From IMG/VR virus record IMGVR_UViG_3300021387_001054: a stretch of 64,000 nt of DNA. One strand, written 5' to 3'. This DNA is from a virus. Both the position numbers and the translations under genes were made by a program. Under the pieces are notes generated by a model, which made no database searches, was not told where the DNA came from, and saw only the letters and a program-made list of their open reading frames with translations. Within the stretch, counting starts at the first letter, position 1; every line of letters begins with the position of its first letter. Positions 3,506 to 42,588 of the stretch are shown piece after piece.

Positions 3506-3949
3506 ATGTATTCGGCATTTGAAGTAGCAAAGTACATCATATGGTACTGTACCAAAGAGAATCATATAGTAAGCAATCTTAAATTGCAAAAAATTTTATA
3601 CTTTGTACAAGCTGAATTTTTGGTTGCACGTAATACCCCATGCTTTAACGAAAAAATTGAGGCGTGGACTTTTGGGCCAGTTGTTCCTGATGTTTATTAT
3701 AAATATCGAGCATTTGGAAATGCACATATTCCTTGTGTAGATATGACGGATTCGTACAATATTACACATGAAGATAGATTACTCATCAACGGTATTATTG
3801 ATGCTTGTGCGCCTTACACAGCTCCGCAATTAACGGAAATTACACGAAATCAATCTCCATGGTTAAAAGCATATCACACAAACAAATCTTGTATAATTTC
3901 TGAAACATCTATCCATGAATTTTTCAAAAAAGAGGAAAGCGATCTATGA
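3506..3949 (+). CDS. Panacea (DUF4065/GepA/SocA-like) domain protein, antitoxin-like
   Basis: N-terminal MYSAFEVAKYIIWYC...NLKLQKILYFVQAEF...EAWTFGPVVPDVY matches the recalled KLQKLLYYAQ / AW.HGPV.P.VY pattern of the phage-associated GepA/Panacea family. RBS aggtga. Confidence 0.5.
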   Translation: MYSAFEVAKYIIWYCTKENHIVSNLKLQKILYFVQAEFLVARNTPCFNEKIEAWTFGPVVPDVYYKYRAFGNAHIPCVDMTDSYNITHEDRLLINGIIDACAPYTAPQLTEITRNQSPWLKAYHTNKSCIISETSIHEFFKKEESDL

Positions 3950-5103: not shown

Positions 5104-5146
5104 ACGGCAATTCTTTTAGCGAAATTTTAACACTAAGGAGATAGAT

Positions 5147-5752
5147 ATGGGTAAACTAACAATTGATGACTTTGTAAAAGCAATTAAACTCTGCATGTCG
5201 ACTAAAGTAGAGGGTTGTAGTGGATGCCCCGCTGTGTATGTAGAGGATGATTGTCTGCAAATCAATGAGATTGTTGCACCGATCGTAACTGCAAGAGTAC
5301 GCGCGAAACGTCTTGAACGTGACCTTAAAGTGGCAAAAGCAGAAATTACTTTATTAAAAGGTGCAATGAAAACAATGACTGACCAGCCCGAAAAGGACAC
5401 CCGGAAAACAAGTTCTACTCCCCGCAACCAGAATGAAGAAGATTTAGAACGCTGGCACCTGATTGGTGCAAAAGCTCTTAACGATTTGTTATGTTTGCAC
5501 ATGATTGTCGAATATGGAGCACCATTAACCGGTTGTGTTATCAGCGAGTTAGAAAATAGCATGGATGTTTGTTTTGGCGTTTTAGCGAAAGTAGCTACTG
5601 CGTGTGAGTATCCTACTATTGGTGAATTTATGATTCGGGCTGCATTGATCTTAGATAAAAGATCGGCAGACCCCAGTAAACGAAAATATATTAACGAAAC
5701 TTTAGTTGTATTGTTGATGAGAGGAGATGGATCGCATGAGTCTATTTGGTAA
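5147..5752 (+). CDS. Hypothetical protein (201 aa)
   Basis: Strong RBS aaggagatagatATG. The antisense ORF 5116-5778 was judged spurious. Confidence 0.5.
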   Translation: MGKLTIDDFVKAIKLCMSTKVEGCSGCPAVYVEDDCLQINEIVAPIVTARVRAKRLERDLKVAKAEITLLKGAMKTMTDQPEKDTRKTSSTPRNQNEEDLERWHLIGAKALNDLLCLHMIVEYGAPLTGCVISELENSMDVCFGVLAKVATACEYPTIGEFMIRAALILDKRSADPSKRKYINETLVVLLMRGDGSHESIW

Positions 5753-6110
5753 GAAAGAACGTGACGAAATGTTAGCAAAAACTGCTCACACAGTTGCTAT
5801 TCGTGTTATGGATATTGCTAATCTTGCAAATATTATTTCACAGTTACATGATATTCACGGTGAATATGTTTTAGTGAGTGATATTGTAGATGGTGTAAAT
5901 GAAACAATTGACAATGCGTTCTTACATATTGCTCTAACCTCTGGCATAGTTAAGCACGATTTAATTCAGTTGGTATTACATACAGCCGAGCGACTTGATG
6001 AATCTGCTGCAAAGTCTGGCAAAAAAACTGATATGTATAATGTTGTTCGCGATTATCTCTCCCCTGATGTAGAGGCTCATATTATAGAGATGTTTGTTGA
6101 TGAAGAATAA
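5727..6110 (+). CDS. Hypothetical protein (127 aa)
   Basis: Overlapping-start arrangement and acidic small protein typical of phage early genes. Confidence 0.4.
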   Translation: MDRMSLFGKKERDEMLAKTAHTVAIRVMDIANLANIISQLHDIHGEYVLVSDIVDGVNETIDNAFLHIALTSGIVKHDLIQLVLHTAERLDESAAKSGKKTDMYNVVRDYLSPDVEAHIIEMFVDEE

Positions 6111-6519
6111 AATAGTCAAAGACACCTCTCCAGTCGATCTCAACCGTCATGTTGCTCTTATTCAAATTCGCGATTTCTTAAACTTCTTGCGTGATGCCGA
6201 GTATGAGTTTATCGCTGCAACAGGTATAATTGAATTAAAAGAGAGTGAACAACAAGATATCGAGCATTACTTAGAACTACACGATGTTTGTCCCAGTGAT
6301 TTAGAGAAATTAAGTGCAGCTCTAACTCAGATTCGCAGAGAGCGGCGCGAAGCAAAGAATTGTGTTGAACTACTTGCGCCGATTCAGAATTGGTATAATG
6401 ATAACCAAAAGATGATTTCTAGCTTGAAACATTTATTAGATGATGTATCTGCTATTGAATGTAAACAGCAACATAGAAACTATGTAGATCGAACGGATGT
6501 TATCAGACGCACCTTATGA
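6094..6519 (+). CDS. Hypothetical protein (141 aa)
   Basis: ORF overlapping the upstream stop. No recognisable domain. Confidence 0.4.
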   Translation: MLMKNKIVKDTSPVDLNRHVALIQIRDFLNFLRDAEYEFIAATGIIELKESEQQDIEHYLELHDVCPSDLEKLSAALTQIRRERREAKNCVELLAPIQNWYNDNQKMISSLKHLLDDVSAIECKQQHRNYVDRTDVIRRTL

Positions 6520-6934: not shown

Positions 6935-7096
6935 ATGTGGTTTGTCTTTCTTGTATCTATGATTGCTATTAGTTTGGTAAGTTCACTTTTGGTTTTATTT
7001 ATCAACGCGGTAGCCAATAAGATTCACAAAGATAATATCCGAGCAGAAAAAGAACTAGAAGAATATCGTACAAAGGAGCACTACAAAGATGAGTAA
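6935..7096 (+). CDS. Unlisted 53-aa single-TM membrane peptide (MWFVFLVSMIAISLVSSLLVLFINAV...), overlapping the start of the SPFH gene
   Basis: ATG at 6935 preceded by agggag. Hydrophobic N-terminal helix then a charged tail. Stop TAA at 7094-7096 overlaps the ATG at 7089. Confidence 0.45.
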   Translation: MWFVFLVSMIAISLVSSLLVLFINAVANKIHKDNIRAEKELEEYRTKEHYKDE

Positions 7097-7961
7097 GAAA
7101 CTTATTGCTGTTATTATTGTTCTAATTGGAATTATTGGTGGTGTTTACACTGTCTTATCTTTAGAACACGTTGGTCAAGGTGAAGTTGGTGTTGTATATC
7201 GCATGAAGGACGGTGTACAAGATGAGACGCTTGCGCCAGGATTTCACTTCATCTCCCCCACTAGCAAAGTAAAGACGTACCCTATTGCTCAACAGCAACT
7301 TGTATTGAGTAATAATCCCTCTGATTACAATACTGATTCTCATGCGGATTGGCATGTCGATGCACCCGCTAATGGCGGTATGGTAAAACTCAATATGACG
7401 ATCAATTATAACTTCTTACCTGACCGTGTAGTAGAACTCTATGAAAAGTTCAACGGCATGGACGGCGATCAAATCATGGATAGTATGGTACAGAATAGTG
7501 CTATCGCTTACATCAAAGAAGTTACGCCGCAATTCACCGTAATGGATATTTATAGTGATAAACGGTCTGAGGTAAGCAAAGCAATTACTCAGTATCTTGA
7601 TTCTAAATTGACGGACGAGTACGGTATCAATATTTCTTCTGCTCTTATTATTGATGTACAACTTGATAAGACATTACAAGAAAAGGTACAGGCAAAAGAA
7701 CAGGCTAAACAGGATGCAGAAAAAGCTGAATTGGATAAACAGACAGCTATTGCACAGGGTGAAGCAAATAAAGCAAAGGCAGAAGCGGCTGCGGCGGTTA
7801 CTATTACAAATGCGCAAGCGGAAGCTAAAGCAAACCAGATTATTTCCGCTTCTATCACTGATAAGTTAATTGCAATGAAGGAAGCAGAAGCCCGGCAGAA
7901 GTTTGGTTGGATTACTGTACAAGGAGCCAATACAGTTGTTACTACAGATGAAGATCAGTAA
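7089..7961 (+). CDS. SPFH/band-7 (HflK/HflC/flotillin-like) domain membrane protein
   Basis: N-terminal TM segment (LIAVIIVLIGIIGGVY), then GEVGVVYRM...APGFHFISP, and a C-terminal A/E/K/Q-rich coiled coil (EKVQAKEQAKQDAEKAELDKQTAIAQGEANKAKAEAAAA). Confidence 0.6.
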   Translation: MSKKLIAVIIVLIGIIGGVYTVLSLEHVGQGEVGVVYRMKDGVQDETLAPGFHFISPTSKVKTYPIAQQQLVLSNNPSDYNTDSHADWHVDAPANGGMVKLNMTINYNFLPDRVVELYEKFNGMDGDQIMDSMVQNSAIAYIKEVTPQFTVMDIYSDKRSEVSKAITQYLDSKLTDEYGINISSALIIDVQLDKTLQEKVQAKEQAKQDAEKAELDKQTAIAQGEANKAKAEAAAAVTITNAQAEAKANQIISASITDKLIAMKEAEARQKFGWITVQGANTVVTTDEDQ

Positions 7962-8157: not shown

Positions 8158-8352
8158 ATGCCGGAGTGCCTGTACCGCGCTGCTTGCGGGAAGGAGGGAT
8201 TTGATGACTGCCCTTGTGATTTTTATTTTCCGATGTCCGACTATTCGAGGCTCTCCTGTCCGGATCGGCAGCAATTAACTTCGTATCGCATTTCTTTAGA
8301 ACAAAGACAGAAAGCGTACCGTGAAATTATAAAAGACTTTAAGGATGATTAA
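8158..8352 (+). CDS. Small Cys-rich protein (64 aa)
   Basis: Strong RBS gagggaggagg. Cysteines appear as C..C / C.C / C. Confidence 0.45.
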   Translation: MPECLYRAACGKEGFDDCPCDFYFPMSDYSRLSCPDRQQLTSYRISLEQRQKAYREIIKDFKDD

Positions 8353-8474: not shown

Positions 8475-10931
8475 ATGCTGTTTCGTCAAATTAGAATGAT
8501 TACCGGTGATTGCGGCAAACGCAACGATTATATTATCTTTGTTAATTGTAAAGGTGGCAAAGCTCACCGTGACGCATTATCTGATTTAGTACGAGAAGGA
8601 TTTTGGATTGGTGATACACATTACGTAACCAGCGAACGGTCAGCATCTATGGTACGCACCTCTATACTTTCTTTTGTAGATGAAAGTATTAGTGAAGAAT
8701 TACGCCGTCGTGTCACGATGGATATACATTTAGAAACAACGGTTCTTTCTAAGTGGTATGCGTATCGCGGATTGATGTTAAGCTCGTGTCATTGTTTAGA
8801 GGGTTGGACGCCGCGTATTATTATCGTACCAGACTTATATCGTGTTATTGCAAATCAGACGATTAAGTATGTTTATGATAAACACATGACCTATGAAAAG
8901 GACGGTAAAGTATTACCGTGGGTGCAAAAAGATATTGCGACCGGTGTACGAGACATCGAGATCAATGCTGCGGATGGGTGTGGAATACATCATCCTGATA
9001 TTACCGATCAAGTTCGTGGCATGTTGGACGCTAAGTCCGACCCTACTTCAATCTTGTGGCGTGCGCCTTTTATCAAAGGCGTAACCCACGAGATGGATTA
9101 CATTTCATTTTTTCAAGAACGCGGGGTAACTGAAATAGTAGATATTTGGGGAGTACGTCACGACGTCTCCCCTTCTTCCCTACCTGCTATTATTATGTGT
9201 GAATCAATGTATAAAGGTTTCAAATATTTCAAACGCAATGGAGATGTGTCAGATTGGGAACATTATTGGGAAGTGTTTCATAAATACAATCATTGCATCG
9301 GAGTTGCGAAATGGAATTTTTCTTTAGATGAAGAACCTTTGTATACTCGCGGCAACTATCAGATATTGCAAGACTTAGATTTACCTTATGAGGATTTTGC
9401 TACGCTGGCGCGATATTCGATAAGTTGGGTGTCACGCATTCTTACCGGCGATCCCGTTTATCTGTATAGTTTTCTCGGATTATTTGCCGACCAACATAAG
9501 AGCTTTGATTTGCGCATGGAAGCGTTAGTTAAGAATCGTATGATGATTCATGAAGCTGGTGTACGTCAGTACATTATATCATTGATTTCTAAAACGATTG
9601 ATGATATGAAGTGTGGTAAATTATATTTGAAAGCCTGTTTTAAATTTGAAGCTCCTGACCTTATTATGTTAATGGAACATATCGGCGGTTTGCCTTTGCA
9701 TGGTTGTTTAGAATCAGATGAGTTTTTCTCGTTTAACAAACAAGGTAAGTTCAACGGTTATTATTTGGTGGAACGCAACCCCCATATTTGTCGATCTGAG
9801 CATTGCAAATTAAAAGCGGTTAATAATGAATTAACTGACAAGTATTGTTCCCACCTGGTGAATGTAGCTATGTTAAATAGTAAATCAATTACTGCCCAGC
9901 GATTAAACGGTAGTGACTTTGACGGCGATTTAGTATTAGTAATTGATGAACCCATGATGATGGCAGGCGTAGACCCCGACGTTCCAATTACGATTGATGT
10001 TGAAGATAAAGTTACTGCTTTAGAAGAAGCTGACACGCCTGAGAATCAGGTGAAAGTTGCATTACGTGGCATGAATTCGTTAATCGGTGAGACAAGTAAT
10101 TGTGCTACGGCATACATCAATAAAACGCCGAAGACCATTGAAGCTAAATTGCGCTATGACTCTTATATAAACTTACTGAGTGTTATCAATGGTAAAGCAA
10201 TTGATTCGGCTAAGACCGGTGTAGTGTATAATATTCCTAGATATATTGCTAAGTATGGGCGACCTCTCCCCTACTTCATGAAATATGCTTCACCATATTA
10301 TGCCAGCATGAAAGACTTATCTAAGTCACTTAGTAACATGAATCGTCTTTGCATGGAAATTGAATCGTGGCAGCGGTCTATCCGGTGGAATAAACCGTTT
10401 TCTAAATTTTCTGCTACGGGAACAATGCAAAACTTTGAGTATCATATTGACACAGAGGATAATATGAATCAGCCCGCAGAGTCACAGCATTTTGATTATA
10501 AAATCATGATCGACGATACAATCCCCGTCGATAAAAATAAACTCGAACAGATTCGGGCTATCTTTCTACAGTACAATCAAGAAAGTAGTGCTTTAACAAA
10601 AGAGTTTCGCGCAGGGTTATTAAAGGCTACAAATAAAAAGAGCCGATCTGAAAGCTATGTAATAGATATTGATTGGCAGACATTTTATAATTCGTACCGA
10701 TTAAGATGTTTTGATATTTGTCCTAACATCTGTGAGCTTGCTAACTATGCTGTTATTATTTGTTATGAGTATTATCCAAAAAGGTCAAAAGGTTTTTTGT
10801 GGCATATAGCTGGCGAAGGCATTATTGCTAATCTTAAACAAGTAGAAGAATATTTACCTATCAGAGATGATGCCGGTGACTACGAATATTTAGGTCGGCG
10901 GTATCGAATGGAGAAGATCATGTTTGATTAA
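8475..10931 (+). CDS. Candidate YonO-like single-chain DPBB RNA polymerase (818 aa)
   Basis: Contains NGSDFDGDLVLVIDE. DFDGD is the Mg-binding signature of the RNAP beta-prime double-psi beta-barrel and of YonO- and crAss-type phage RNAPs. The size is close to the recalled 839 aa of YonO. It is followed by an HU-like gene and then terminase and portal, as in SPbeta (from memory). Confidence 0.45.
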   Translation: MLFRQIRMITGDCGKRNDYIIFVNCKGGKAHRDALSDLVREGFWIGDTHYVTSERSASMVRTSILSFVDESISEELRRRVTMDIHLETTVLSKWYAYRGLMLSSCHCLEGWTPRIIIVPDLYRVIANQTIKYVYDKHMTYEKDGKVLPWVQKDIATGVRDIEINAADGCGIHHPDITDQVRGMLDAKSDPTSILWRAPFIKGVTHEMDYISFFQERGVTEIVDIWGVRHDVSPSSLPAIIMCESMYKGFKYFKRNGDVSDWEHYWEVFHKYNHCIGVAKWNFSLDEEPLYTRGNYQILQDLDLPYEDFATLARYSISWVSRILTGDPVYLYSFLGLFADQHKSFDLRMEALVKNRMMIHEAGVRQYIISLISKTIDDMKCGKLYLKACFKFEAPDLIMLMEHIGGLPLHGCLESDEFFSFNKQGKFNGYYLVERNPHICRSEHCKLKAVNNELTDKYCSHLVNVAMLNSKSITAQRLNGSDFDGDLVLVIDEPMMMAGVDPDVPITIDVEDKVTALEEADTPENQVKVALRGMNSLIGETSNCATAYINKTPKTIEAKLRYDSYINLLSVINGKAIDSAKTGVVYNIPRYIAKYGRPLPYFMKYASPYYASMKDLSKSLSNMNRLCMEIESWQRSIRWNKPFSKFSATGTMQNFEYHIDTEDNMNQPAESQHFDYKIMIDDTIPVDKNKLEQIRAIFLQYNQESSALTKEFRAGLLKATNKKSRSESYVIDIDWQTFYNSYRLRCFDICPNICELANYAVIICYEYYPKRSKGFLWHIAGEGIIANLKQVEEYLPIRDDAGDYEYLGRRYRMEKIMFD

Positions 10932-11568
10932 CGAAATATTATTAGTTCAGAATTTATTAGATGGAATCGGTATCAATAAGGCATGTTTGTTTCAACATTG
11001 TTATTTATTGGCGAAGTATTATTTGCAGTTAGGATACGAACCGGTAGATGTTCGTCGGAATATTTTTGCGTGGGCAAATAAATATAATTTATATTTAAGC
11101 AGCACAAAAATCAATATCAACCGCATCATTTTCAAAGCGCAAGAAGATAAACGTCGTTTACGTGAGGACGTAGTTGTTCGTGTTTCGCAGAAAGATTTAG
11201 ATAATATTGCAGAACGGTTTGATAATCCGAAAACGCGCCGCATTGCTCTGGCCATGTTGTGCTATGCAAAGGTTGCAGCAGATAGCGCAAATGAGTTTGA
11301 ACTATCTATCATATCATTCTGTAACTGGCTCGGAGTTGATTTCTCACGGATGCACAGGGCATATCTAAAAGAATTGCAAACCTTTGGATATGTTGAGCGG
11401 ATATCAAAGACTCATGCCAAGAAGATTTATTCGTGGGATCGCAACGTCAAAAGTAAAGCTGCGAATTTTAAGTTGTTAGTGAAGTTTAATAATTCTGGCA
11501 CGCATGTATTAAGAAATAACGATATTGATGCTTTGTTTCATGAATGTTTCGATGAGCGCACTGACTGA
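10924..11568 (+). CDS. Hypothetical protein (214 aa), last gene of the operon
   Basis: Start overlaps the upstream stop. Followed by a strong terminator. Confidence 0.45.
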   Translation: MINEILLVQNLLDGIGINKACLFQHCYLLAKYYLQLGYEPVDVRRNIFAWANKYNLYLSSTKININRIIFKAQEDKRRLREDVVVRVSQKDLDNIAERFDNPKTRRIALAMLCYAKVAADSANEFELSIISFCNWLGVDFSRMHRAYLKELQTFGYVERISKTHAKKIYSWDRNVKSKAANFKLLVKFNNSGTHVLRNNDIDALFHECFDERTD

Positions 11569-11586
11569 CGAAAACTTTATATTGAA

Positions 11587-11625
11587 CCACCCCTCTGTTG
11601 TTTTTGAGGGGTGGTTTTGTTTTGA
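11587..11625 (+). terminator. Rho-independent terminator (10-bp perfect stem accacccctc/gaggggtggt plus T-run)
   Basis: accacccctc tgttgttttt gaggggtggt tttgttttg. Confidence 0.75.
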
Positions 11626-11763
11626 AAAAGTCTGTGTATATGAATACATAATATGTGTGGTAAATATAAATTGTTAAAATAAATGGCTCTGGCTGAGTCA
11701 AATTTAATTTTTGCTCGTGGTCTTTGGATTACGATCAAAGAAGTAAAGGAATGAAAGAACGTA

Positions 11764-11973
11764 TTGATTAAGTTGTTAAGCACCGAAGTCACGGAGTTGG
11801 CACGCCAAAAGAAACATTATAATCTGGTTAAGACACAGGGATCTCATCGTGGACGTAAAAAATATTATTTGAAAAACGATGATTATGAGGCTATGGCAGT
11901 TATTGCCAATATGCGAGGGTACGATCTGAATACCTTCTATCATAACTGTGTCGAGGGATTGGGATATGTATGA
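11764..11973 (+). CDS. Hypothetical small protein (69 aa)
   Basis: ORF only. Confidence 0.3.
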   Translation: MIKLLSTEVTELARQKKHYNLVKTQGSHRGRKKYYLKNDDYEAMAVIANMRGYDLNTFYHNCVEGLGYV

Positions 11974-12170
11974 GCCAAGATAATGTATTTGAACAGGCTA
12001 TTGTAAAAATCTCAGGCGTATTCGATGTAGACGATAACGGGCAGATTGTTGTGTATGATGATGATATGCAGCCTTGTAGGTTGTCTGAGATATTAGAAAA
12101 ATATATGGGACACTACGCTTTGTTAACAATAGAAACACGCGAATTAGGAATCACAAAGAAAGGACGGTGA
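11970..12170 (+). CDS. Hypothetical small protein (66 aa)
   Basis: ATGA-coupled to the upstream ORF. Confidence 0.3.
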   Translation: MSQDNVFEQAIVKISGVFDVDDNGQIVVYDDDMQPCRLSEILEKYMGHYALLTIETRELGITKKGR

Positions 12171-12509
12171 GTGCTAGTGGTTAAAAAGGAATTAGTAGCA
12201 GAGATTGCTGACCGTATGAATATCGACAAAGAAACCGCAGGTTTATTCTTTCAAACATTTCAGGATGTAGTCTATGACACGCTTAATTCTGGCGAGGATA
12301 TTTTAATTGTTAATATGATGCGTATGGAGATTGTGCTACGCGATGGACGTAGCTATTATGATTTATCTGCAAAGGCAAACGCATGGGCACCGCCTAGATA
12401 TAATTTAGTAATTCGTCCTATTGGCAAATTAAAGGACTCTATTAAGAGCCAGAAGGTTTCTACTTATGAAGCAAAGAAATTGCGTAAGCACTCTCGGAGC
12501 GAAGACTAA
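12171..12509 (+). CDS. HU/IHF-like DNA-binding protein (GTG start)
   Basis: Length and pattern (KKELVAEIADRMNIDKETAGLFFQTFQDVVYDTL..GEDILIV...R.GR...........P...LVIRPIGKLKDSIK) parallel bacterial HU (MNKTELI..VA...L.K......V......I...L..GD.V.L.GFG.F.V..R..R.GRNP.TG....I.....P.FK.GK.LKD.V). Confidence 0.5.
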   Translation: MLVVKKELVAEIADRMNIDKETAGLFFQTFQDVVYDTLNSGEDILIVNMMRMEIVLRDGRSYYDLSAKANAWAPPRYNLVIRPIGKLKDSIKSQKVSTYEAKKLRKHSRSED

Positions 12510-13471
12510 TGGGTAGAGCAAAACAAAGTAAACACATTAAGTTGTTCGATAAAGAAAAAGTTGCGAAGATTAACCCTGAGAGTAAAAGGCTATTAAGAGA
12601 ATATAAAAAAGATATGGTGTTGCGTGAACTGTCTCCCGGAACAATCGAAGGTTATTTTGGTGACTTATATCAGTGGTTGATTTTTGTATTAGAGAATCAA
12701 GAGAATAAGTCTGTTTTAGAAATAGACGAAGATGATCTGACAGATTTTTTCTATTGGTGTAAAACCGAAGGAAACAATACACGCCGCATGAGACGTAGAT
12801 ATTCTAGCATTTCAGCGTTTTATAAATTTTTAAGGAAAAAGCGCAAGGTCACAGAGAACCCGATGGAGTTTGTAGACCGACCAATTAAAGATGTCGATGT
12901 AATCACTCAGACATATTTAACAGTAGAGCAAATTGAAGAAATGAAAGAGAAATTAGCAGCGACGGGAAATCTCACACTTGAAGTGTATGCTTTATTCTCT
13001 TTGAGTACAATGGCTCGTGTCAATGCTGTGTCCAACATCAAGTGGAAACAGATTGATTTTGCGCAACGCATTGTTACGGACGTTTTAGAAAAAGAAGGAA
13101 AAATAGTAACCTTATATTTTTCTGAGGAAGTCCGGTTAAAACTTATTCGACTTCAACAGTTCCGCGAACTAAACGAGATCGACGATGGTGGTTATGTCTT
13201 TTTCAGCAGAGATAAAGATGGTCATCCTAAACCTGTATCGACTGGTACATTACATAGTTGGGCAAGGAAGATTGGTCGCATGATTGGGGTGCCTACGCTG
13301 CATCCGCATGACTTTAGGCACTCTGGTAGCCAGCAACTTAAACTTGCTGGTATGCCCTTAGAGGAAATATCGGTTTTATTAAATCATGAATCGACTGAAA
13401 CTACCCGGAGACATTACCTACAAGCCGACACACAAAGTATACGAGCATCCAAAGATAAGTATGGCTTGTGA
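12509..13471 (+). CDS. Tyrosine site-specific recombinase (XerC/D or phage-integrase family)
   Basis: C-terminal catalytic block LHPHDFRHSGSQQLK ... TRRHYLQ (H-x-x-R ... Y) and an N-terminal SAM-like domain. Confidence 0.8.
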   Translation: MGRAKQSKHIKLFDKEKVAKINPESKRLLREYKKDMVLRELSPGTIEGYFGDLYQWLIFVLENQENKSVLEIDEDDLTDFFYWCKTEGNNTRRMRRRYSSISAFYKFLRKKRKVTENPMEFVDRPIKDVDVITQTYLTVEQIEEMKEKLAATGNLTLEVYALFSLSTMARVNAVSNIKWKQIDFAQRIVTDVLEKEGKIVTLYFSEEVRLKLIRLQQFRELNEIDDGGYVFFSRDKDGHPKPVSTGTLHSWARKIGRMIGVPTLHPHDFRHSGSQQLKLAGMPLEEISVLLNHESTETTRRHYLQADTQSIRASKDKYGL

Positions 13472-13513
13472 GTTTGGATAATTTTGGAATAGAAGAATTA
13501 AAGGATTGATAGC

Positions 13514-14650
13514 ATGGATTTACTTGATTTACGAGCAGATCAACGTGCTGCGGCAGCTAAGAACGAGAAACTTGGCGAGATGTATGTATTCGCGTCGCGC
13601 CATGTTAAATGTACACGGTGCGGTCTGGTGCCGCGCAAAGCTGATACTGTTTTCTTCAAAAAGAATGATTCTCCTGTTTACTCAGCAAACAATGGACGTA
13701 TTTGTATTTGTAAATCGTGTGCACAGAAAATATTTGAAGCATACGCAAAGGAAACAAATGATCCTTTGTACGCATTGATGCAATTTTGTGCTGAGTTTAA
13801 TTACTATTATGATAAAGAAGTCGCCATTGCACTGTATGATAATGGCACATTATCATTAGGTAGATACATAGCGAAGATCAATACAGTAGACAGAGGTAAA
13901 ACATTTGCTGACAATTTTGCATCTGTTGTATCTACTCAACGAGAAGAACCTGCGGTTTTAGAGCAACCAACCTATAATCGTACAACGTCTTGGGCAATTG
14001 AAGACAAGAAAAACAAAGACAATGTTTCAGAACGTATCGGCTACGACCCGTTTATTGACGGGGGATTTTCTGATGAACAGTTAAAATTTCTGTATAATAC
14101 CTGCGCGGGGTATTTAACAGATGCGGTTGAACAAGACCCGCATAAATTGCAAAACGTCGTTTTGATGTGTAAAACATTTTTACAGTTGGAAACAATTGAT
14201 AAGATGTTAAATAATCAATTTAACTCAGTTAATCCAGACACACAACTCATTGCGTCACTCACTGCCACTAAAGAGAAATTGACTAATACTATTACTAGAA
14301 TAGCGAACGAAAATGGTTTTGCTGAAAAAACTAGCGGTCGTTCCAACCAAGGTTCAAACACACTGTCGTTCAAAATGCGTGAAATGGAACAAAAACATTT
14401 TGAGTTTTCTAAGGTAAATATACATGATGTTCGTATGGCTGAATCATTTAAGGAAATCGCCAAAATTAACGCACACGCTTTAATGGATGAACTTGCAGAA
14501 ACCGGCGATGATTTTGCTCGTCTCTGCGCGGATCAGCGACAGTTTGTTGTGGAATTGCAAGAAGAGAACGATGAATTAACTGAGCAGAATAGATTGCTTA
14601 ATATTCGTATCAAAGACTTAGAAGAACAAATAAAGGCGAAGGCTCGGTGA
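13514..14650 (+). CDS. Zn-ribbon plus leucine-zipper coiled-coil protein (378 aa); possible terminase small subunit or DNA-binding packaging factor
   Basis: CTRCG...CICKSC Zn-ribbon-like N-terminus and a C-terminal heptad coiled coil. Sits immediately upstream of TerL. Confidence 0.3.
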   Translation: MDLLDLRADQRAAAAKNEKLGEMYVFASRHVKCTRCGLVPRKADTVFFKKNDSPVYSANNGRICICKSCAQKIFEAYAKETNDPLYALMQFCAEFNYYYDKEVAIALYDNGTLSLGRYIAKINTVDRGKTFADNFASVVSTQREEPAVLEQPTYNRTTSWAIEDKKNKDNVSERIGYDPFIDGGFSDEQLKFLYNTCAGYLTDAVEQDPHKLQNVVLMCKTFLQLETIDKMLNNQFNSVNPDTQLIASLTATKEKLTNTITRIANENGFAEKTSGRSNQGSNTLSFKMREMEQKHFEFSKVNIHDVRMAESFKEIAKINAHALMDELAETGDDFARLCADQRQFVVELQEENDELTEQNRLLNIRIKDLEEQIKAKAR

Positions 14651-14655
14651 TATAG

Positions 14656-16644
14656 GTGGCAGTTAGTACACAGCTCTCCCCCGCTATTGCCGATGATGAA
14701 ATTTTCCAGTTTGACACAGTGCGTTTTGATTTAGCGTCTATTCGTTTAGACCAGATCGAGATTACTGACCCTGACTTGTTACAGTTAGCGTACAAATACT
14801 ATAAAGCACTCAGCGCAAAAAAGATTAAAGAGTATTTGCGTTTCTGCAAATTTGTGCAATGGGGACGTTTGAATCCAGTTGATTTTGCTTCGGCTGTATT
14901 TGGCATTGAGATGTTAGATTTGCAGAAATATGCTTTAATCAACTCTTGGCCGCGACAGTTTGTATTATGGCTTGAATGTCGAAACGCTGGCAAGACTACC
15001 TTGATCGCAATTTATGTTATGTTACGGTCGTTATTGATTCCCTATCATGTTACATACTTGTTAGGCAAAATCGGCGGTCAGTCAAAGCAAATATTCAAAA
15101 AAATTGAAGAAATTGCTACACAACGTATTGAGACATTCCTAGGTGTTACTGATGTGTTCTACAATGAGTTGCGCAAAGATGGTGCAAACTCAACAGGATT
15201 TAAGCACGATCCGAACTCGTTTGAATTGAATTTGTTTAATAACGCTGCTGTATATACATTGAACTCTGACCCAACAAATATTAAAGGTAAGCGTGCATCA
15301 TTAGTCGTATTTGACGAAGCAGGTTGGTTCTCTGACGAATTGTTTACACAAGCAGAAGCATTTGTAAATCAGAATGAAGAATTCAAATTAGGTGGAGATG
15401 TCGATTTAAGCATTGAGCCTACAGGATTCCCTAGACAGTTATTATATGCGTCTTCGGCTTCTGATACAAACTCTGGTTTTTATCGTAAGTTTAAGAATAT
15501 ATCAGAACGTATGTTACTTGGCGATACTCGGTACTTCTCTGTCAACTTTACAGCAGATGCTTTGTTGAATGCAAAGGTTGATGGTAAACCTTATACTTCT
15601 CTGGTATCTAAAGATCAGATTGATAAAATGATGACCGAAAAGCGCGAGGCTGCATTACGAGAATACTATAATCATTTTTCTGCTGACTCTTTTGAAGGGC
15701 AAATTATTTCTCGTCGAGATTTGATGCAGTGTACAGAAAACTATACTCCTATTATGTCCAACGATACCGGCAATCGAATCATTTGTATGTCGTGGGACTC
15801 TGCGAGACTGAACGATAATTCGGTTATTGTAATCGCAGAATTTTATAAAAAGAAAGAACGCGACAAAGATTCTGGCCGTACACGCGATATGGGATGGCAC
15901 ATGCGCATTCTCAATGTTGTCTCATTAGTTGACGTTAAAACCAAACAGCGCACGCCAATGCGTTTCCCTGAGCAAGTAGAAAGATTCAAACAATTATTGT
16001 TGGATTATAACGGCACGCAACACGGCAAAAAAGACTATGAAAACATTAAACGTATTATTTGTGATGCCGGTGCCGGTGGTCAGATCATTGGTTCTGTAGC
16101 TGATTATATGTTAGCTCACTGGACAGATTCATTTGGTAATGAACACAAAGGCATTATTGATGTTTCTCATAAGGCGAATGAAAGTGCTAGAGCCACTTAT
16201 CCTGATGCAGTTGATATTATGACGCTTGTCGATCCTAGAGCGCACAGAAATGAAATTTTTGATGCGATTGAAAAAATGGTGAAACTTGGAGTGGTATCAT
16301 TCCCTGCCGATCCAGAAGGCAGAGACTTTATTACCCATATTGATGATGAAGGCAATGACATTGTTACTCAACTGACGCCGGAACAGATGGTAGCTTGTTC
16401 TCAAATCGAGTTAATGAAAACAGAAATTGTTACTATGTGCAAGTATGTAACGCAAGGTAATATTCGTTATGATTTTCCGGCCGACAAAAGAAATCGTATG
16501 CACGATGACCGCGTATTTGCGTTTGGATTGTTGTGTTGGTATTTAGCGAAACTGCGGCGCGGTGATGTGGTAACACGTAGACCAGAAGATGAACCAGAAG
16601 TGTTTGTACTTCCGTTCCGTAAACCAGTATTAAGAAAACTCTAA
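14656..16644 (+). CDS. Terminase large subunit
   Basis: Walker A-like LECRNAGKTTLIAIYV and Walker B LVVFDEAGWF. Size, nuclease-like C-terminal half, and position before the portal gene all fit. Confidence 0.75.
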   Translation: MAVSTQLSPAIADDEIFQFDTVRFDLASIRLDQIEITDPDLLQLAYKYYKALSAKKIKEYLRFCKFVQWGRLNPVDFASAVFGIEMLDLQKYALINSWPRQFVLWLECRNAGKTTLIAIYVMLRSLLIPYHVTYLLGKIGGQSKQIFKKIEEIATQRIETFLGVTDVFYNELRKDGANSTGFKHDPNSFELNLFNNAAVYTLNSDPTNIKGKRASLVVFDEAGWFSDELFTQAEAFVNQNEEFKLGGDVDLSIEPTGFPRQLLYASSASDTNSGFYRKFKNISERMLLGDTRYFSVNFTADALLNAKVDGKPYTSLVSKDQIDKMMTEKREAALREYYNHFSADSFEGQIISRRDLMQCTENYTPIMSNDTGNRIICMSWDSARLNDNSVIVIAEFYKKKERDKDSGRTRDMGWHMRILNVVSLVDVKTKQRTPMRFPEQVERFKQLLLDYNGTQHGKKDYENIKRIICDAGAGGQIIGSVADYMLAHWTDSFGNEHKGIIDVSHKANESARATYPDAVDIMTLVDPRAHRNEIFDAIEKMVKLGVVSFPADPEGRDFITHIDDEGNDIVTQLTPEQMVACSQIELMKTEIVTMCKYVTQGNIRYDFPADKRNRMHDDRVFAFGLLCWYLAKLRRGDVVTRRPEDEPEVFVLPFRKPVLRKL

Positions 16645-16657
16645 AGGAGGTGTATGT

Positions 16658-18112
16658 GTGAGTAGCAATCAAGTTGTAGATGAACAGTTTTTAAGATACG
16701 CGAAACTTGCGAAACAATATTTAAGACCTCCGGGCAGTATTACTTCTGATACTCAGACCACATTTGGTTCTTTTACAAAAAAAGATATTCTGGATTTGTT
16801 AGAGCGTCCAGCAAATTCTGAAAGGCAACTGCGAAAAGCATCTATCATGCTTTACAATATTTCCAGTCATTATCGTCGTTTGATTTCTTATTTTGCTAAA
16901 ATGCCGACGTTTGACTTCTATCTAACACCACTTGGGGTTGATCCCCAGGCGAAAATTAACGAGAAGAGTTTTAAGAGTTGTTTCAAAAAGGCCGTTGACC
17001 AAGTAGAGCGGATGAATTTGAAACATGAATTACAAAAAGTATCAACTACGATTTGGCGTGAGGATGTATTTTATGGATATGAGTATGAGCAGAAAGACTC
17101 GTACTTCATCCAAAAATTAAATGCTGATTATTGTAGACTGTCTGCAATTGAAGACGGCGTGTTTACTTTTGAATTTGATTTTAGCTTTTTCAATTCTCGG
17201 TTGCATTTGCTGCCGTACTATGCTCCTGAATTTCAGCGCAAATATGAATTGTATAAATCAGATCGAAAAGGCAAACGCTGGCAAGAGCTTGATACAAAAA
17301 AAGAAGTATGTTTCAAGCTAAATGAAGATTTAGAATATATTTTCCCTCCCTTTGCAGGGACGTTCCCTGACATTTACGACATCGCTGATTATAAGCAGCT
17401 CATGAAGGCTCGCACTGAGATTGATAACTATAAATTGGTCTATTTGAAAATACCTTTTGAAAATGGCAGATTTAAGTTACCAGAAAGACTTGCGAATAAT
17501 TACTATGAGCAAATGGGACAGCAGATGCCACCCGGTGTTGGTCTTGGCATGACCCCCATGGATATCGACCAAGTAAGTTTTGAGCAATCTGGTAATACTC
17601 GTGACACAGATACGGTTGCGCGAAGTGAAGCTGCATTTTGGAGCGGTAGCGGTGCATCGTCTGCTATTCTCGGTAAAGATGATATTACATCGTCTTCTGC
17701 AATTATGCTGTCAATCGAAACAGATGCAGAAATTGTATATTCATTACTGCGGCAGATTGAACGATGGGTTAATCGTAAATTAAAACAATTATCGGGAACG
17801 TATCATTTTAAGCTCACATTCTTAAATTCGACTGTATTTAATAAGCAAAACGCACAGGAACAATACCTCAAGGCTTGTCAATATAGTTTCCCGTTGAAAT
17901 ATGCGGCTGCCGCAGCATACGGCATTACGCCGTCTGATTTTAGCGGTTTATTAGTATTAGAAAATGAGACAATGAAATTGCACGAGGAAATGATACCTGT
18001 ATCATCTTCTCATACGCAAAGCAGTGATAGTTCGCCGGGGCGTCCTGCCCAGGACACAGTAGATGAGTCGGGTGAAAAGAATAGGGCGAATGATAGCAAT
18101 GATAAACGGTAA
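16658..18112 (+). CDS. Portal protein
   Basis: 484-aa protein directly downstream of TerL, with a Ser/Asp-rich acidic C-terminus. Called by position and size. Confidence 0.55.
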   Translation: MSSNQVVDEQFLRYAKLAKQYLRPPGSITSDTQTTFGSFTKKDILDLLERPANSERQLRKASIMLYNISSHYRRLISYFAKMPTFDFYLTPLGVDPQAKINEKSFKSCFKKAVDQVERMNLKHELQKVSTTIWREDVFYGYEYEQKDSYFIQKLNADYCRLSAIEDGVFTFEFDFSFFNSRLHLLPYYAPEFQRKYELYKSDRKGKRWQELDTKKEVCFKLNEDLEYIFPPFAGTFPDIYDIADYKQLMKARTEIDNYKLVYLKIPFENGRFKLPERLANNYYEQMGQQMPPGVGLGMTPMDIDQVSFEQSGNTRDTDTVARSEAAFWSGSGASSAILGKDDITSSSAIMLSIETDAEIVYSLLRQIERWVNRKLKQLSGTYHFKLTFLNSTVFNKQNAQEQYLKACQYSFPLKYAAAAAYGITPSDFSGLLVLENETMKLHEEMIPVSSSHTQSSDSSPGRPAQDTVDESGEKNRANDSNDKR

Positions 18113-18360
18113 CGCATTATTTTTATATACCTGCAACCCCTCAACCGCCGAACGGTTGCGAGAGTTAAATTTTGATCTATTAAATGTTAGAGGCGGTCAA
18201 TATATATTCGTTTGTTCTCCTGATATGTATAGTTGTTATTCAAGTAATGAGTTAAGTGATATATTATCAGAATTATATGTGACAAATAAATTGATACTCT
18301 AACTGCCTGATGGCAGTTTTATTATTTGATAGGAGGTGAGATATCATAGAAAAGATTCGT

Positions 18361-19890
18361 TTGAAGTCTTCACTTTCTAATTCGGTTTCTAATTTAACTG
18401 ATATCAATGACTCTTTCGCTCTTGGAACATTGAATGTAGCTTACACCGGTGAAAATCGAAATCAGACTGCAATCTCCAAAGAGGCATTTGAAAAAAGTGC
18501 TTGGTCAGCCTTAAACTGTCCGATTGTTGCTAATTATGACTTCGAGACAAAAGAAATCGGTGGTCATGACACAATTTTATCATTGTCACCTAATGGAGCA
18601 AGTGTTATCAACCTCACCCAACCTGTCGGTGTTGTGCCTGAATCGGCGAAATTTTATTGGAAATCAATTGAGGACAATGGCGTTGTGCATGACTATTTAT
18701 GTATTGATAATGTTATATTATGGAAACGTCAACCATGTTATCAGAAACTTGTCGAGAATGGCACAACCGCTCAGTCTATAGAAATTAGTGTTACTAATGG
18801 ACAGTTAGATGATGGCATATTACATATCAACGAATTTCAGTTTGAAGCATTTTGTTTGTTAGAACGCGATGAGCCGTGTTTTGAACAGGCTTCTTTGCAG
18901 TTATTTAGTAAGCAAGAATTTGCTGAACAGTGGCAACAGATGTTACAAGAATATGCACAAACCACATTACCGGATTCCGAGAATGGAGGGAAATCAGTGG
19001 ATTTAGAAAATACCGTAATTCAGGAAGTAGAAGATATAGCGGAGGAGACAGTAGTTGCCCCCGCAGATGATGGTGCACAAAATGATGTGGACGTAGCTGA
19101 ACAGTCTGCGGACGAAGAGGTTGTAGCAACTTCTGAGGAAACATCTGAGGTGGAAACGACAGAAAATAAAACGTCTGATGGTGAACTGCCTGTCGATGAC
19201 GAAACTGTTGAAAGCGAAGGAGCAGAAGTACTGGAGTCGTTTGCTTTAACTGCGGAACAAATTCGCTGCCAATTATTGCGAGAACTTGATGTTATGGGCA
19301 ATCATTTTAGCTTGTATGATTACGATAATGAAAATGTCTATTTTTATGATTGTGAAGATGGACTGTTGTATGGATGTGCGTACCAGATCGTAGATGGACA
19401 CGCGGTTATTAACTTAGAGACTAAAACTCGTAAGCAACTTGCTATTGTTGATGTAGAACAATCTGAGAGTCATTCTGTTTTGTCTGACTTAATCAATCAT
19501 ATGGTGGACGAGCAGGTTGGTAATTGCTCTGCTGCGTATGCAGATAAGATAGCTCAATTAGAAACTCAGATTGGCGAATTAAATGCTACCATTAAAGAAC
19601 TGACTGAGTTTAAGACACAGAAGTTGGCAGACGAGCGTGCATCTGCGGAGACGGCATTGTTTGATCGTTTTGATGAACAACTGCAACGGTGTGATGCGTA
19701 TACCGAATTAAAGCAACATGCAGCTGAGTATTCGCTCTCTGAATTAGAGACTCAGTGTTATGTATTAGTAGCAAAGAAAGCTATGATGTTTTCAAAGGCA
19801 CCTGTGTCTCGTAGAATACCCGTCGAGGGTGTTACAAATACGTCGGTAGATGCTTATGGTGGTTTACTGAACGATAAAAAACAAATTTAA
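18361..19890 (+). CDS. Scaffolding or prohead-protease-scaffold fusion-like protein
   Basis: Globular N-terminal domain, highly acidic low-complexity linker (EETVVAPADDGAQNDVDVAEQSADEEVVATSEETSEVETTEN) and a C-terminal coiled coil. Sits between portal and capsid. Confidence 0.35.
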   Translation: MKSSLSNSVSNLTDINDSFALGTLNVAYTGENRNQTAISKEAFEKSAWSALNCPIVANYDFETKEIGGHDTILSLSPNGASVINLTQPVGVVPESAKFYWKSIEDNGVVHDYLCIDNVILWKRQPCYQKLVENGTTAQSIEISVTNGQLDDGILHINEFQFEAFCLLERDEPCFEQASLQLFSKQEFAEQWQQMLQEYAQTTLPDSENGGKSVDLENTVIQEVEDIAEETVVAPADDGAQNDVDVAEQSADEEVVATSEETSEVETTENKTSDGELPVDDETVESEGAEVLESFALTAEQIRCQLLRELDVMGNHFSLYDYDNENVYFYDCEDGLLYGCAYQIVDGHAVINLETKTRKQLAIVDVEQSESHSVLSDLINHMVDEQVGNCSAAYADKIAQLETQIGELNATIKELTEFKTQKLADERASAETALFDRFDEQLQRCDAYTELKQHAAEYSLSELETQCYVLVAKKAMMFSKAPVSRRIPVEGVTNTSVDAYGGLLNDKKQI

Positions 19891-20445: not shown

Positions 20446-21462
20446 ATGGCTAATACTAACGAGATCGTAAGACTGGCTCTTGATAGCCGTCATGGTCGTG
20501 GTGATGCGACACATTATTCTGCGCATGACGTGCAAGACTCCCTGCGTTCTGCTCTGATTGACCTGAATGGTGGTTCTACGAAGTTGAATGCAAAGGCTAT
20601 CCGCAATGGCAATGCTAATGAGATGTTTTCTGTTGCCGAAGAGGTTATCCAGCATGAGTTAAATGATTATTGGACGAACAACGAGATTGTTAATCGTGTT
20701 GTTGAGCATCGCAATGCAGCTCTTGGCGATGACCTTGAGTTCTATGTACCGGACAATTCTCTGTTCGCAGTTGCTACTATTTCTGAGGGTAACACTGGTA
20801 TTCGTCGCCAGCGTTTTACGAATGGCCAGTACGTTAATGTTCCGGTTGAACTGCGCGGTATTAAGATTTATGAGGATATGATTCGCGTACTGTCTGGCCG
20901 TGTTGATTTTAATGATATGATTGACAGAGCTATTGCATCTATGGCAAAGGACGGTTACGACCGCGCTATGAGTGCATGGGCTAAGATTTCTGCTACCGAG
21001 CTTGGCGACACTTATGTTCCGACCGTAACTGGCACATACGACGAGGACACTCTTCTGCGCCTGGTTGATGACGTCGAGGCTGAAACCGGTAAGAAGGCTG
21101 TTATTTACGGCACGAAGCGTGCTCTGCGCACCATTGCTCCGTCCGTTGAGATGGCAGCATCGTCTGCGAAGGAAGACCTGTATCAGATGGGTTACTTTGG
21201 TAAGTTCTATGGCACCGATTGTGTTGCTATGCAGCAGGCGCACAAGACCAATTCGACCGAAATGGTTCTTGATGACAAGACCTTGTTTGTTATGGCAGCA
21301 GATGACAAGCCGATCAAGCACGTTACTTATGGTGAAGGACTCATCCTGCAAAAGGATGCTATCGAGAATGCTGATCTTACCTACGAGTGGCTTTACACTG
21401 AACGCGATGGTTTTGGTGTTGTTGTCAGCGACGTATTTGGTAAGTACACGTTTGCGAACTAA
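20446..21462 (+). CDS. Major capsid protein (candidate)
   Basis: 338 aa with strong RBS aggaggtt and codon usage biased to GC-ending codons (highly expressed). Position after the scaffold. The antisense ORF 20659-21351 is spurious. Confidence 0.5.
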   Translation: MANTNEIVRLALDSRHGRGDATHYSAHDVQDSLRSALIDLNGGSTKLNAKAIRNGNANEMFSVAEEVIQHELNDYWTNNEIVNRVVEHRNAALGDDLEFYVPDNSLFAVATISEGNTGIRRQRFTNGQYVNVPVELRGIKIYEDMIRVLSGRVDFNDMIDRAIASMAKDGYDRAMSAWAKISATELGDTYVPTVTGTYDEDTLLRLVDDVEAETGKKAVIYGTKRALRTIAPSVEMAASSAKEDLYQMGYFGKFYGTDCVAMQQAHKTNSTEMVLDDKTLFVMAADDKPIKHVTYGEGLILQKDAIENADLTYEWLYTERDGFGVVVSDVFGKYTFAN

Positions 21463-41433: not shown

Positions 41434-42588
41434 TCAGACGTGCTGAGATGATACTGTATCCGGTACTTGACTATCCTTTGCAAGATAGTTGATTCCCATG
41501 CGATACAGATTCATTGCTCCGATACGGTCATCATTGGACGTGTAACCGCAAGATTTACAGCAGAAGATATGCTTATTTTTATCACGGTTAGACTTTTCCG
41601 TGTGACCGCAAACAGGACAGGTCTGGCTCGTATAACGAGGGTCTACGTTAATTACTAGACTCTCGTTGAGCGCAGCCTTATACTTTAACTTCTTCTCCAG
41701 GTCGTAAAACGACCAAGATACGGTAACATAACGGTCTTTGCGACGCACCTTCTCTGTGGCAGAACGAACGCCGGACAGGTCCTCTAAGACAAAGAGCGTG
41801 TGCTTCGGGTTAGACTCAACGAGTGCCTTTGATACACAATGGTTTACATCCTGCATCCAACGGTTTTCTCGCTGACCGATAGCTTTTAGCCTTCGTCTTG
41901 CAGAAGGAGTCTGTCTTTGCTGAAGTTCCTTGCGGAGCTGTTTGTACTTAGCACGTTTTTGCTTAATATTCCTGCCGCTTACAAAGCCGGACTTATGTTT
42001 GCTGTCATAGGTTGCAACGACAAAGTTAATACCCCTGTCTACGCCGACAACATTACAAACGTCGCAATCCAAGGCTTCAAGGATATCTCTGGTAACTGGG
42101 ATATGCAGAAAATACTTGCCATGCTTTTTCACAAGTTTGGCAGTGCCAAAGGAGTAGATATCGTGGTCAAAGTATTTCTCCATGCCACCAGAATAGTATG
42201 GCAGCTTCACACGACCGCTAAGTGTATTTACAGAGAACAAGTTCTGCGTAAGAGAATAGTCTCTATTCCACACAAGGTCGTATTGAGGATTAGAAAAATC
42301 TGGCTTAATCCATTCATGTTGGTTTTCTAAGATGGTTTTGTATCTTGCAATAACCGTCTTAAAAACAGATTGTGCCATCTGGGATTTTAAGCCATAGCGC
42401 TTACGGAGATCATAATACAATGCCTTATTAAGCGAAAACTGCTTCAGGTCATGCGTCTGGAAGATGTAATTTGCCACAAAGTTACACGCACTGCGATAGG
42501 TGTCCATAGTAACATCCAACAGCTCACGCTGTTCGGGTGCAACTCGGACCTGAATCTTTGCAGTAGTAGTGATTTGCATCAGTAACAT
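41434..42588 (-). CDS. tnpB: TnpB (OrfB) RuvC-like RNA-guided endonuclease of IS200/IS605
   Basis: RuvC-I VVGVDRGINF, RuvC-II LFVLEDLSG, zinc finger CPVCG...CKSCG, RuvC-III NDDRIGAMN. Confidence 0.85.
   Translation of the reverse strand: MLLMQITTTAKIQVRVAPEQRELLDVTMDTYRSACNFVANYIFQTHDLKQFSLNKALYYDLRKRYGLKSQMAQSVFKTVIARYKTILENQHEWIKPDFSNPQYDLVWNRDYSLTQNLFSVNTLSGRVKLPYYSGGMEKYFDHDIYSFGTAKLVKKHGKYFLHIPVTRDILEALDCDVCNVVGVDRGINFVVATYDSKHKSGFVSGRNIKQKRAKYKQLRKELQQRQTPSARRRLKAIGQRENRWMQDVNHCVSKALVESNPKHTLFVLEDLSGVRSATEKVRRKDRYVTVSWSFYDLEKKLKYKAALNESLVINVDPRYTSQTCPVCGHTEKSNRDKNKHIFCCKSCGYTSNDDRIGAMNLYRMGINYLAKDSQVPDTVSSQHV

Follow-up and report, generated by a model that had tools for sequence, protein, structure and literature searches.

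Gene 8475-10931 of a 64,000-nucleotide stretch of viral DNA (IMG/VR record IMGVR_UViG_3300021387_001054; hereafter the window, which is numbered from its first letter) encodes, as judged from its sequence, a YonO-family two-barrel RNA polymerase (RNAP) with an intact catalytic DxDGD triad. The gene is followed by a 214-aa winged-helix gene, an intrinsic terminator, a conserved promoter-like DNA motif and a cluster of late genes with counterparts in phage SPbeta. As a whole, these observations are best explained by a YonO-family RNAP that transcribes the late cluster, a reading that we hold with good confidence. The window derives from a large SPbeta-like phage or prophage, whose host is presumably an uncultured gut or rumen member of the Bacillota. 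Relatives of the RNAP in genome databases were placed in Lachnospiraceae, Oscillospiraceae, Faecalibacillus, Christensenella, Sedimentibacter and Peptococcaceae. Loci of relatives are denoted below by numbers with the prefix L, L001 being SPbeta.

Identification of a YonO-family RNA polymerase

An earlier note on this DNA had reported an 818-aa open reading frame (ORF) with a DFDGD pentad and had interpreted it as a YonO-type single-chain RNAP. The ORF was present as described, with the pentad in the context NGSDFDGDLVLVIDE. Its features are as follows, invariance referring to an alignment of 50 homologs with 52-73% identity.

8475..10931, + strand: YonO-family single-chain two-barrel RNA polymerase, 818 aa, intact ORF
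9060..9080, + strand: R196-A-P-F-I-K201-G202, basic motif of the first (beta-like) barrel; R196, P198, K201 and G202 invariant
9774..9785, + strand: R434-N-P-H437 motif of the second (beta-prime-like) barrel; R434, N435, P436 and H437 invariant
9915..9929, + strand: D481-F-D483-G-D485, predicted catalytic metal-binding triad, from conservation and alignment to YonO and RDR2; D481, D483, G484 and D485 invariant
10197..10220, + strand: A-I-D577-S-A-K580-T-G582 motif; D577, K580, T581 and G582 invariant

Because D481, D483, G484 and D485 were invariant in all 50 homologs, DFDGD was regarded as a functional motif and not as a chance string. It aligned with DNDGD of YonO in a pairwise BLASTP comparison and with DLDGD of maize RDR2 in a profile search of PDB sequences. 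The same BLASTP comparison aligned RAPFIKG with RLPWVKG and RNPH with RSPHL of YonO, while the profile search aligned RNPH with KNPCLH and AIDSAKTG with AVDFAKTG of RDR2. The basic motif with R196, K201 and G202 would correspond to the GRHGNKG motif of the beta subunit (on two-barrel RNAPs see Iyer, Koonin and Aravind 2003). For YonO, a D>N mutant of the triad was made as a test of its catalytic role (PMC5467207).

Database searches agreed with this motif assignment. The Pfam family RdRP (PF05183, the QDE-1/RDR family) matched with an E value of 2.7e-17 and 63.2 bits, against a gathering cutoff of 23.8, and the match covered profile positions 55-573 of 582. BLASTP against YonO gave an E value of 1e-23 with 23% identity over 576 aa, residues 31-591 being homologous. 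In phage records, tblastn retrieved yonO of SPbeta and of approximately 25 SPbeta-like Bacillus phages (26 records, E ~1e-15 to 2e-17), as well as closer relatives in Thomasclavelia phages TR-TP1/2 (41%), Enterocloster phages, Clostridium botulinum phages c-st and D-1873, and 0305phi8-36. The family comprised 1,347 representatives at 50% identity with E values up to 1e-3, 163 of them at E up to 1e-30. Homology to YonO, a PF05183 match over nearly the whole profile and alignment of DFDGD with DNDGD thus bore out the interpretation as a YonO-type single-chain enzyme.

A phmmer search of PDB sequences with the RNAP protein returned nothing relevant, and the alignment profile matched RDR2 and QDE-1 only marginally (E 0.0075-0.5), yet with the correct motifs aligned. 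A comparison at the level of the fold was therefore needed. An AlphaFold2 model built from the 50-sequence alignment reached a predicted local distance difference test score (pLDDT) of 89.1 and a predicted template modelling score (pTM) of 0.86. In a Foldseek search of viral models, it matched phage homologs annotated as 'RdRP' and a protein of Thermus virus P23-45. The double-psi beta-barrel fold was not missing from the protein, nor did DFDGD lie within an unrelated fold.

Forrest et al. (2017, PMC5467207) showed that YonO is DNA-dependent and processive in RNA synthesis, and by homology and synteny with it we infer that the window enzyme would likewise perform DNA-dependent, processive synthesis. 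As an alternative, the protein could be an RNA-dependent RNA polymerase that copies phage or host transcripts to double-stranded or antisense RNA, for regulation or counter-defence. Such a function would fit both the PF05183 match at E 2.7e-17, in a model that YonO did not match at E 0.01, and the name 'RNA dependent RNA polymerase' given to relatives by the sources. These names come from the Pfam label and not from assays, however, and YonO is the one bacterial or phage member of the family to have been characterised: its template is DNA, and its role is in late transcription (PMC5467207). Moreover, the structurally similar gp66 of a crAss-like phage has been deposited as a DNA-dependent RNA polymerase (6vr4), the window gene occupies the position of YonO before the same late module, and a conserved DNA motif stands at the start of that module. 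An RNA-dependent enzyme is therefore considered improbable. Pfam identifies the RNAP readily, and annotations already exist for its relatives; the widespread 'RNA-dependent' label of this family from gut phages and Bacillota is probably misleading.

Even less probable is that the protein, instead of being a transcriptase, lays down RNA primers on phage DNA as a primase-like or replication enzyme. In passages of the YonO paper on primer extension (PMC5467207), YonO is described as extending a DNA primer with NTPs in vitro, an activity that the authors there considered unlikely in vivo. The PolD match of the window protein was far weaker than its RNA polymerase matches, and its gene adjoins the late structural module, not a replication module. 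In addition, deletion of yonO specifically silenced 37 late genes (PMC5467207).

Introns in the polymerase genes of relatives

The RNAP gene of the window was uninterrupted. In several relatives, RNAP genes were split at two exact sites, residue ~482-483 (within DFDGD) and residue ~577 (within AIDxAKTG). Such split genes were found in L108 (9455-10407), L109 (9431-9735, 9956-10214 and 10324-10614), L110 (9521-9740 and 10021-10293), L060 (2189-3414), L067, L069, L075, L077 and L079, with a third break at residue ~552 in L109. Since the frame shifts across the breaks, the insertions were interpreted as introns rather than inteins; the insertion at 9905-10179 of L109 matched a group I intron (Rfam, 104.6 bits). 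Many of the 50%-identity representatives of the family were fragments bounded at residues ~483 or ~577.

Self-splicing introns that sit exactly in catalytic motifs are typical of essential, conserved genes. They argue against the idea that the window gene is a decayed or non-catalytic relic in which DFDGD was kept by chance, as do the intact ORF, the invariance of the motif residues in homologs down to 52% identity and the size of the family (1,347 representatives). Nothing in favour of this idea was found, and it can be given almost no credence.

A two-gene unit closed by an intrinsic terminator

The RNAP gene and the 214-aa gene behind it form a two-gene unit that ends at a strong intrinsic terminator.

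10924..11568, + strand: 214-aa partner protein with an N-terminal helical domain and a winged-helix domain; overlaps the stop of the RNAP gene
11584..11626, + strand: intrinsic terminator closing the RNAP-partner unit; 12-bp G+C-rich stem (11584-11617) followed by the U-tract UUUUGUUUU

The terminator had a predicted folding energy of -22.5 kcal/mol (z -5.45), and none of 200 shuffled sequences folded as well. Equivalent hairpins were found in L086, L088, L089, L091, L092 and L110.

The partner protein matched no Pfam or PHROG family. Its homologs, 29-67% identical, were in every case encoded directly after the RNAP gene. The partner model (pLDDT 87.4) consisted of an N-terminal helical domain and a winged helix, whose similarity scores did not discriminate among winged-helix functions. 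Presence or absence of a partner gene tracked the class of the promoter-like motif (class A or class B, see below). From its adjacency to the RNAP gene, its co-termination with that gene and this correlation with motif class, a role as initiation factor is tentatively proposed, in which the winged-helix partner may help the RNAP to recognise or open the promoter motif.

A conserved promoter-like motif downstream of the terminator

Late genes of SPbeta are transcribed as one operon from a single start site upstream of yonK (PMC5467207), and the interval 11569-11763 was therefore the place to search for a late promoter in the window. It contained no + strand sigma-70 match with at least 9 of 12 positions (-35/-10, 16-18 nt spacing), and the sigma-70-like matches found between 7.9 and 19 kb were at chance level (35 found, 37.3 expected). 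The earlier note had offered a phage RNAP as the reason why sigma-A-like promoters are missing ahead of 13514 and 14656. This absence needs no explanation: the gaps concerned measure 42 and 5 nt, and the argument is weak because they lie inside a tightly packed operon, in which genes 11764-18112 overlap or abut. A different element was found in the searched interval.

11639..11655, + strand: class A promoter-like motif TATGAATACATAATATG, supported by an invariant island, a regular-expression test and a hidden Markov model (HMM)

Searching the window intergenic region against viral loci of at most 58% identity with nhmmer gave no match, and closer relatives were therefore fetched. In intergenic DNA of the window and four such relatives, TATGAATACATAATATG stood out as an invariant island between unalignable flanks. 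It lies ~125 nt upstream of a conserved small ORF at 11764 and is unique within the window at up to 3 mismatches. From 16 sites with identical spacing, the class A consensus TnTw-TATGRATAC-WWAAWATGTnT was derived, an element of ~24 nt; TATGAATAC is a stretch of this candidate promoter motif in the window.

When the window was excluded from the training set of a leave-one-out HMM, 11639-11655 was the top match of the whole window (9.8 bits, the next match scoring 4.4). The same procedure succeeded for L086, L088, L089, L091, L006 and L060. Because it failed in six distant loci, distant instances picked by eye were not relied on, and a regular expression was fixed before new data were considered. 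In 10 of 19 independent testable bacterial-genome loci, searched from +600 to +950 after the RNAP stop, the expression matched on the + strand, 619-918 nt past the stop and just after the partner gene, where 0.10 matches were expected (Poisson P 3e-17). The other 583 kb contained 9 matches on both strands together. One of the remaining nine loci, L095, had a match further downstream, at +1517. In class A as well as class B loci, a small ORF of one protein family starts 50-135 nt after the motif.

In many relatives, tandem direct repeats (3-6 copies of 11-13 bp) directly followed the class A motif (L092 ~6110-6200, L043 4400-4480, L066 11080-11130, L004/L099, L100, L011, L053 and L060). The repeat unit was clade-specific, for example AAATGTTTACAC in six copies or GCGTCAGTTGACCT in four, and the arrangement resembles a protein-binding array. 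No tandem direct repeats followed the motif in the window itself. Between the RNAP-proximal motif or gap and the structural genes, tRNA genes occurred in L006 (~5130-5220), L011 (~9800) and L043 (~4500), and L109 carried a full ROOL RNA (299 bits) and a tRNA array at 14219-15710. The window had no tRNA gene and no Rfam match.

These results slightly favour the motif at 11639-11655 as the late promoter or its core. If the enzyme is the late RNAP, the motif might instead serve as an operator for a regulator such as the winged-helix partner, as a promoter at which a sigma factor of phage or host directs the host RNAP, or as a signal for packaging or replication at the head of the structural module. 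Consistent with such functions, the motif includes a -10-like CATAAT or TAATAAT, many relatives carry 3-6 clade-specific tandem repeats after it in the manner of protein-binding arrays, and the partner is of a winged-helix type used by repressors and initiators. Against them, there was no conserved -35-like element 16-18 nt upstream; of the positions before the motif, only a T at -4 and at -2 was kept, and the DNA there is unconserved terminator or coding sequence. Furthermore, the core was kept although the partners were only 29-50% identical, no protein nearby is as conserved as the RNAP, the motif invariably marks the junction of the terminated RNAP unit with the first late ORF, and a variant of it in partner-less loci coincides with the P_YonO interval of SPbeta. 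Functions of this kind are therefore judged unlikely.

Two motif classes and the SPbeta start site

Motif classes were surveyed in 52 non-redundant viral and phage loci. The class A motif was found at +630 to +693 in 13 of the 22 loci with a partner homolog. A second motif, TATGA[AG]1-3GGT (class B), was found 1.1-2.3 kb downstream, at variable distance, in 19 of the 30 partner-less loci, including SPbeta. In the four class B loci examined for it, the small ORF began 52-61 nt after the motif.

SPbeta has class B copies at L001 positions 14915 (TATGAAGGT) and 15072 (TATGAGGGT). The primers used for primer extension of P_YonO map to 14940 and ~15157-15183, which places the start site within 14964-15157. 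This primer-bracketed interval was used for the comparison; the published coordinate of the SPbeta late start site, which is 2225998 in strain 168, could not be transferred to the numbering of the phage record. The SPbeta sequence TCATTTATGAGGGT shares the TATGA core alone with the class A motif, a link that is suggestive and was drawn post hoc.

Between the P_YonO interval and yonK, SPbeta carries a DUF3800-VIII RNA (L001 16039-16104; Rfam, 47.5 bits), which may correspond to the 'unannotated non-coding RNA' that Forrest et al. mentioned. In phage Goe14 (L113), an annotated 'skipping-rope' RNA lies at 306-415, right after hup/yonN and upstream of the P_YonO interval. In the window, Rfam searches gave nothing at gathering level and nothing in 11500-12250 at E values up to 1, and the SPbeta RNA thus has no counterpart in it.

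The late gene cluster and its synteny with SPbeta

Downstream of the motif, the following genes were assigned. YonG_N, YonD_N and YonB are precomputed Pfam matches on contigs identical to the window, to which weak tblastn matches were added for yonG and yonD. Identical contigs were found in metagenomes (ENA ERZ28612943 and ERZ28612966, Logan SRR873599 and IMG/VR 3300021400); their source samples are SAMN02144230, SAMN02144231 and SRR873599.

11764..11973, + strand: 69-aa small ORF with TTG start, first gene after the motif; small-protein family of class A and class B loci
11970..12170, + strand: YonK-like protein, 66 aa; Pfam YonK PF09642 at E 0.0018, below cutoff; positioned as yonK, which heads the SPbeta late operon
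12171..12509, + strand: HU/IHF-like DNA-binding protein, YonN counterpart; PF00216 Bac_DNA_binding E 4.5e-12, PHROG 379 E 3e-12
12509..13471, + strand: tyrosine recombinase, 320 aa; Pfam Phage_integrase E 1.3e-21 and an N-terminal SAM-like domain
13514..14650, + strand: YonG-like protein; YonG_N PF27269, tblastn yonG E 0.002, PHROG 3314
14656..16644, + strand: large terminase, YonF counterpart; PHROG 9 E 1e-6, tblastn yonF E 9e-7, Pfam Terminase_6N E 6e-4, below cutoff
16658..18112, + strand: portal protein, YonE counterpart; PHROG 2739 E 4e-122
18361..19890, + strand: YonD-like protein; YonD_N PF27290, tblastn yonD E 7e-6
20446..21462, + strand: YonB-like virion protein; YonB PF27364

The HU-like gene that the earlier note had placed downstream of the RNAP is real and starts 1240 nt past the RNAP stop, and the terminase and portal genes follow as that note had stated. 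The small ORF, with the family signature M[IV]x[IL]xKxE..LR..[IV]xRT..YY..[ED][ED], was missed by gene finders on the identical contigs.

Gene order in SPbeta is yonO, yonN (HU), yonK, yonJ, ..., yonG, yonF, yonE, yonD, ..., yonB; in the window it is RNAP, 214-aa gene, terminator, 69-aa ORF, YonK-like, HU, tyrosine recombinase, YonG, large terminase, portal, YonD, ..., YonB. All yon counterparts in the window cluster are co-oriented, and direct tblastn against the SPbeta locus gave co-linear weak matches to yonG, yonF and yonD. The synteny with SPbeta proposed earlier therefore holds in broad outline and in gene direction, with differences in order and content: the YonK-like gene precedes HU, YonJ is replaced by a tyrosine recombinase, and the 214-aa gene and the small ORF are additional.

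In four closer relatives (L086-L091, 65-73% RNAP identity), gene order was identical to that of the window, including the recombinase between HU and YonG. More distant relatives showed the order RNAP, ~210-aa gene, gap, small ORF or HU, ~400-aa YonJ-like gene, YonG, large terminase and portal, and in these clades, as in SPbeta, the YonJ-like gene takes the recombinase position. The recombinase could be an integrase, or a concatemer or dimer resolvase that acts with the adjacent HU protein.

Proposed mechanism of late transcription

By extension from SPbeta, host polymerase would make the RNAP-partner unit after induction or infection. The phage enzyme would then work as a DNA-dependent RNAP, starting at one promoter just past the terminator at 11584-11626, and would transcribe the long, co-oriented late cluster as one operon, from the small ORF through YonB and the following genes. 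At 18301-18318, within the 248-nt gap between the portal and YonD-like genes, there is a hairpin that resembles a terminator and has a T-run; transcription of the late cluster as a single operon would require the phage RNAP to read through it. Insensitivity to rifampicin, which the earlier note had presumed, is that note's own inference, and the YonO paper (PMC5467207) makes no mention of rifampicin.

Several observations weigh against this mechanism or parts of it. The Pfam family and the NCBI names of relatives say 'RNA-dependent'. SPbeta has no homolog of the partner, which can therefore not be a universal requirement. Six of 13 loci (L004, L009, L023, L002, L063 and L021) were not recovered by the leave-one-out HMM, and 9 of the 19 independent loci had no regular-expression match between +600 and +950. 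Because the motif holds the -10-like CATAAT, a host sigma factor is possible at this site. With respect to class B, the link to SPbeta was made post hoc, many of the loci are close relatives from one sample, and phage SPbetaL4 lacks the second copy and has a diverged first copy that reads TGTTTGAGGG.

In a further-reaching interpretation, TnTw-TATGRATAC-WWAAWATGTnT would be the first defined promoter of the YonO family, and the partner a dedicated initiation factor that switches the promoter class from TATGARGGT to TATGRATAC. We regard this combination as doubtful. If it is true, RNAP and partner would together form a minimal transcription system of two proteins, with kinship to cellular RNA polymerases.

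Other features of the window

Upstream of the RNAP gene, at 8158-8352, lies a Cys-rich 64-aa ORF that has the size and position of SPbeta yonP and no detectable similarity to it; gene finders called this ORF on one identical contig. Three products were assigned to genes of the upstream, presumably early, region (1583-3154, 3506-3949 and 7089-7961): a helicase-like protein with weak Helicase_C and Cas3-like C-terminal matches, a protein with a SocA/Panacea antitoxin domain (E 7e-16) and a member of the SPFH/Band_7 family (E 3e-24). At 41434-42926, two ORFs of 384 and 102 aa on the minus strand interrupt the otherwise all-plus run of genes, and this point, at ~41.4-42.9 kb, may be the end of the late operon. 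The G+C content was 0.51 at 50-52 kb (50001-52000), 0.28 past 58 kb (58001-64000) and ~0.39 elsewhere.

Comparison with known systems

Among the known relatives of cellular RNA polymerases, YonO-type enzymes are the smallest, and they have been used to model the ancestral two-barrel polymerase. The promoter of YonO and its need for cofactors were left open by the 2017 paper (PMC5467207), and a literature search for later work on the YonO promoter yielded only unrelated papers. Of particular interest here are a position-specific, statistically solid motif and a conserved partner, both of which bear on promoter recognition in the YonO family. The window locus and its ~100 relatives provide testable candidates for a promoter and a factor of this family.

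Among other phage two-barrel RNAPs, phi14:2 gp66 (6vr4, crAss-like), P74-26 gp62 (8f5m) and P23-45 gp96 (8h2n, fused to a tape-measure protein) had no phmmer-detectable similarity to the window RNAP. Gp66 and gp96 were deposited as virion-packaged or tape-measure proteins, whereas the window gene lies outside the structural module, beside a winged-helix gene.

The window enzyme shares with SPbeta YonO its organisation as a single chain of ~820-840 aa, its DxDGD, R-x-P-x-x-K-G and R-x-P-H motifs, and the position of its gene ahead of HU, YonK, YonG, terminase, portal, YonD and YonB. The two proteins are only 23% identical, however, and SPbeta lacks the 214-aa winged-helix gene found in the window. 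SPbeta further differs in its candidate promoter, TATGARGGT instead of TATGRATAC, in having HU before YonK, and in a YonJ-like gene where the window has a recombinase. YonO (L001 11638-14157) did not reach E 0.01 in the same Pfam library in which the window protein matched RdRP. In view of this strong PF05183 match, the window clade is nearer to the eukaryotic profile than is the Bacillus enzyme.

Closer similarity was found to gp3-gp4 of Thomasclavelia phages TR-TP1 and TR-TP2 and to homologs from uncultured gut phages, which carry the annotation 'RNA-dependent RNA polymerase'. Their RNAP is 41% identical over its full length and its gene forms a pair with a partner gene, HU, terminase and portal genes lie downstream, and a class A-like motif (TTATGAATATACTATAAT) is located behind the partner gene. 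These phages belong to another clade, in which a YonJ-like exonuclease and a lysis cassette stand between HU and terminase. Their motif has a changed spacing and was missed by the leave-one-out HMM.

With the eukaryotic RNA-dependent RNA polymerases QDE-1 and RDR2 (PF05183), the window protein has the motifs RNPxxH, DxDGD and AxDxAKTG in common. The eukaryotic enzymes are 14-18% identical to it and, unlike the function proposed here, copy RNA in silencing pathways. Since the window gene belongs to a double-stranded DNA phage and heads a late operon, a DNA template appears more likely for its product.

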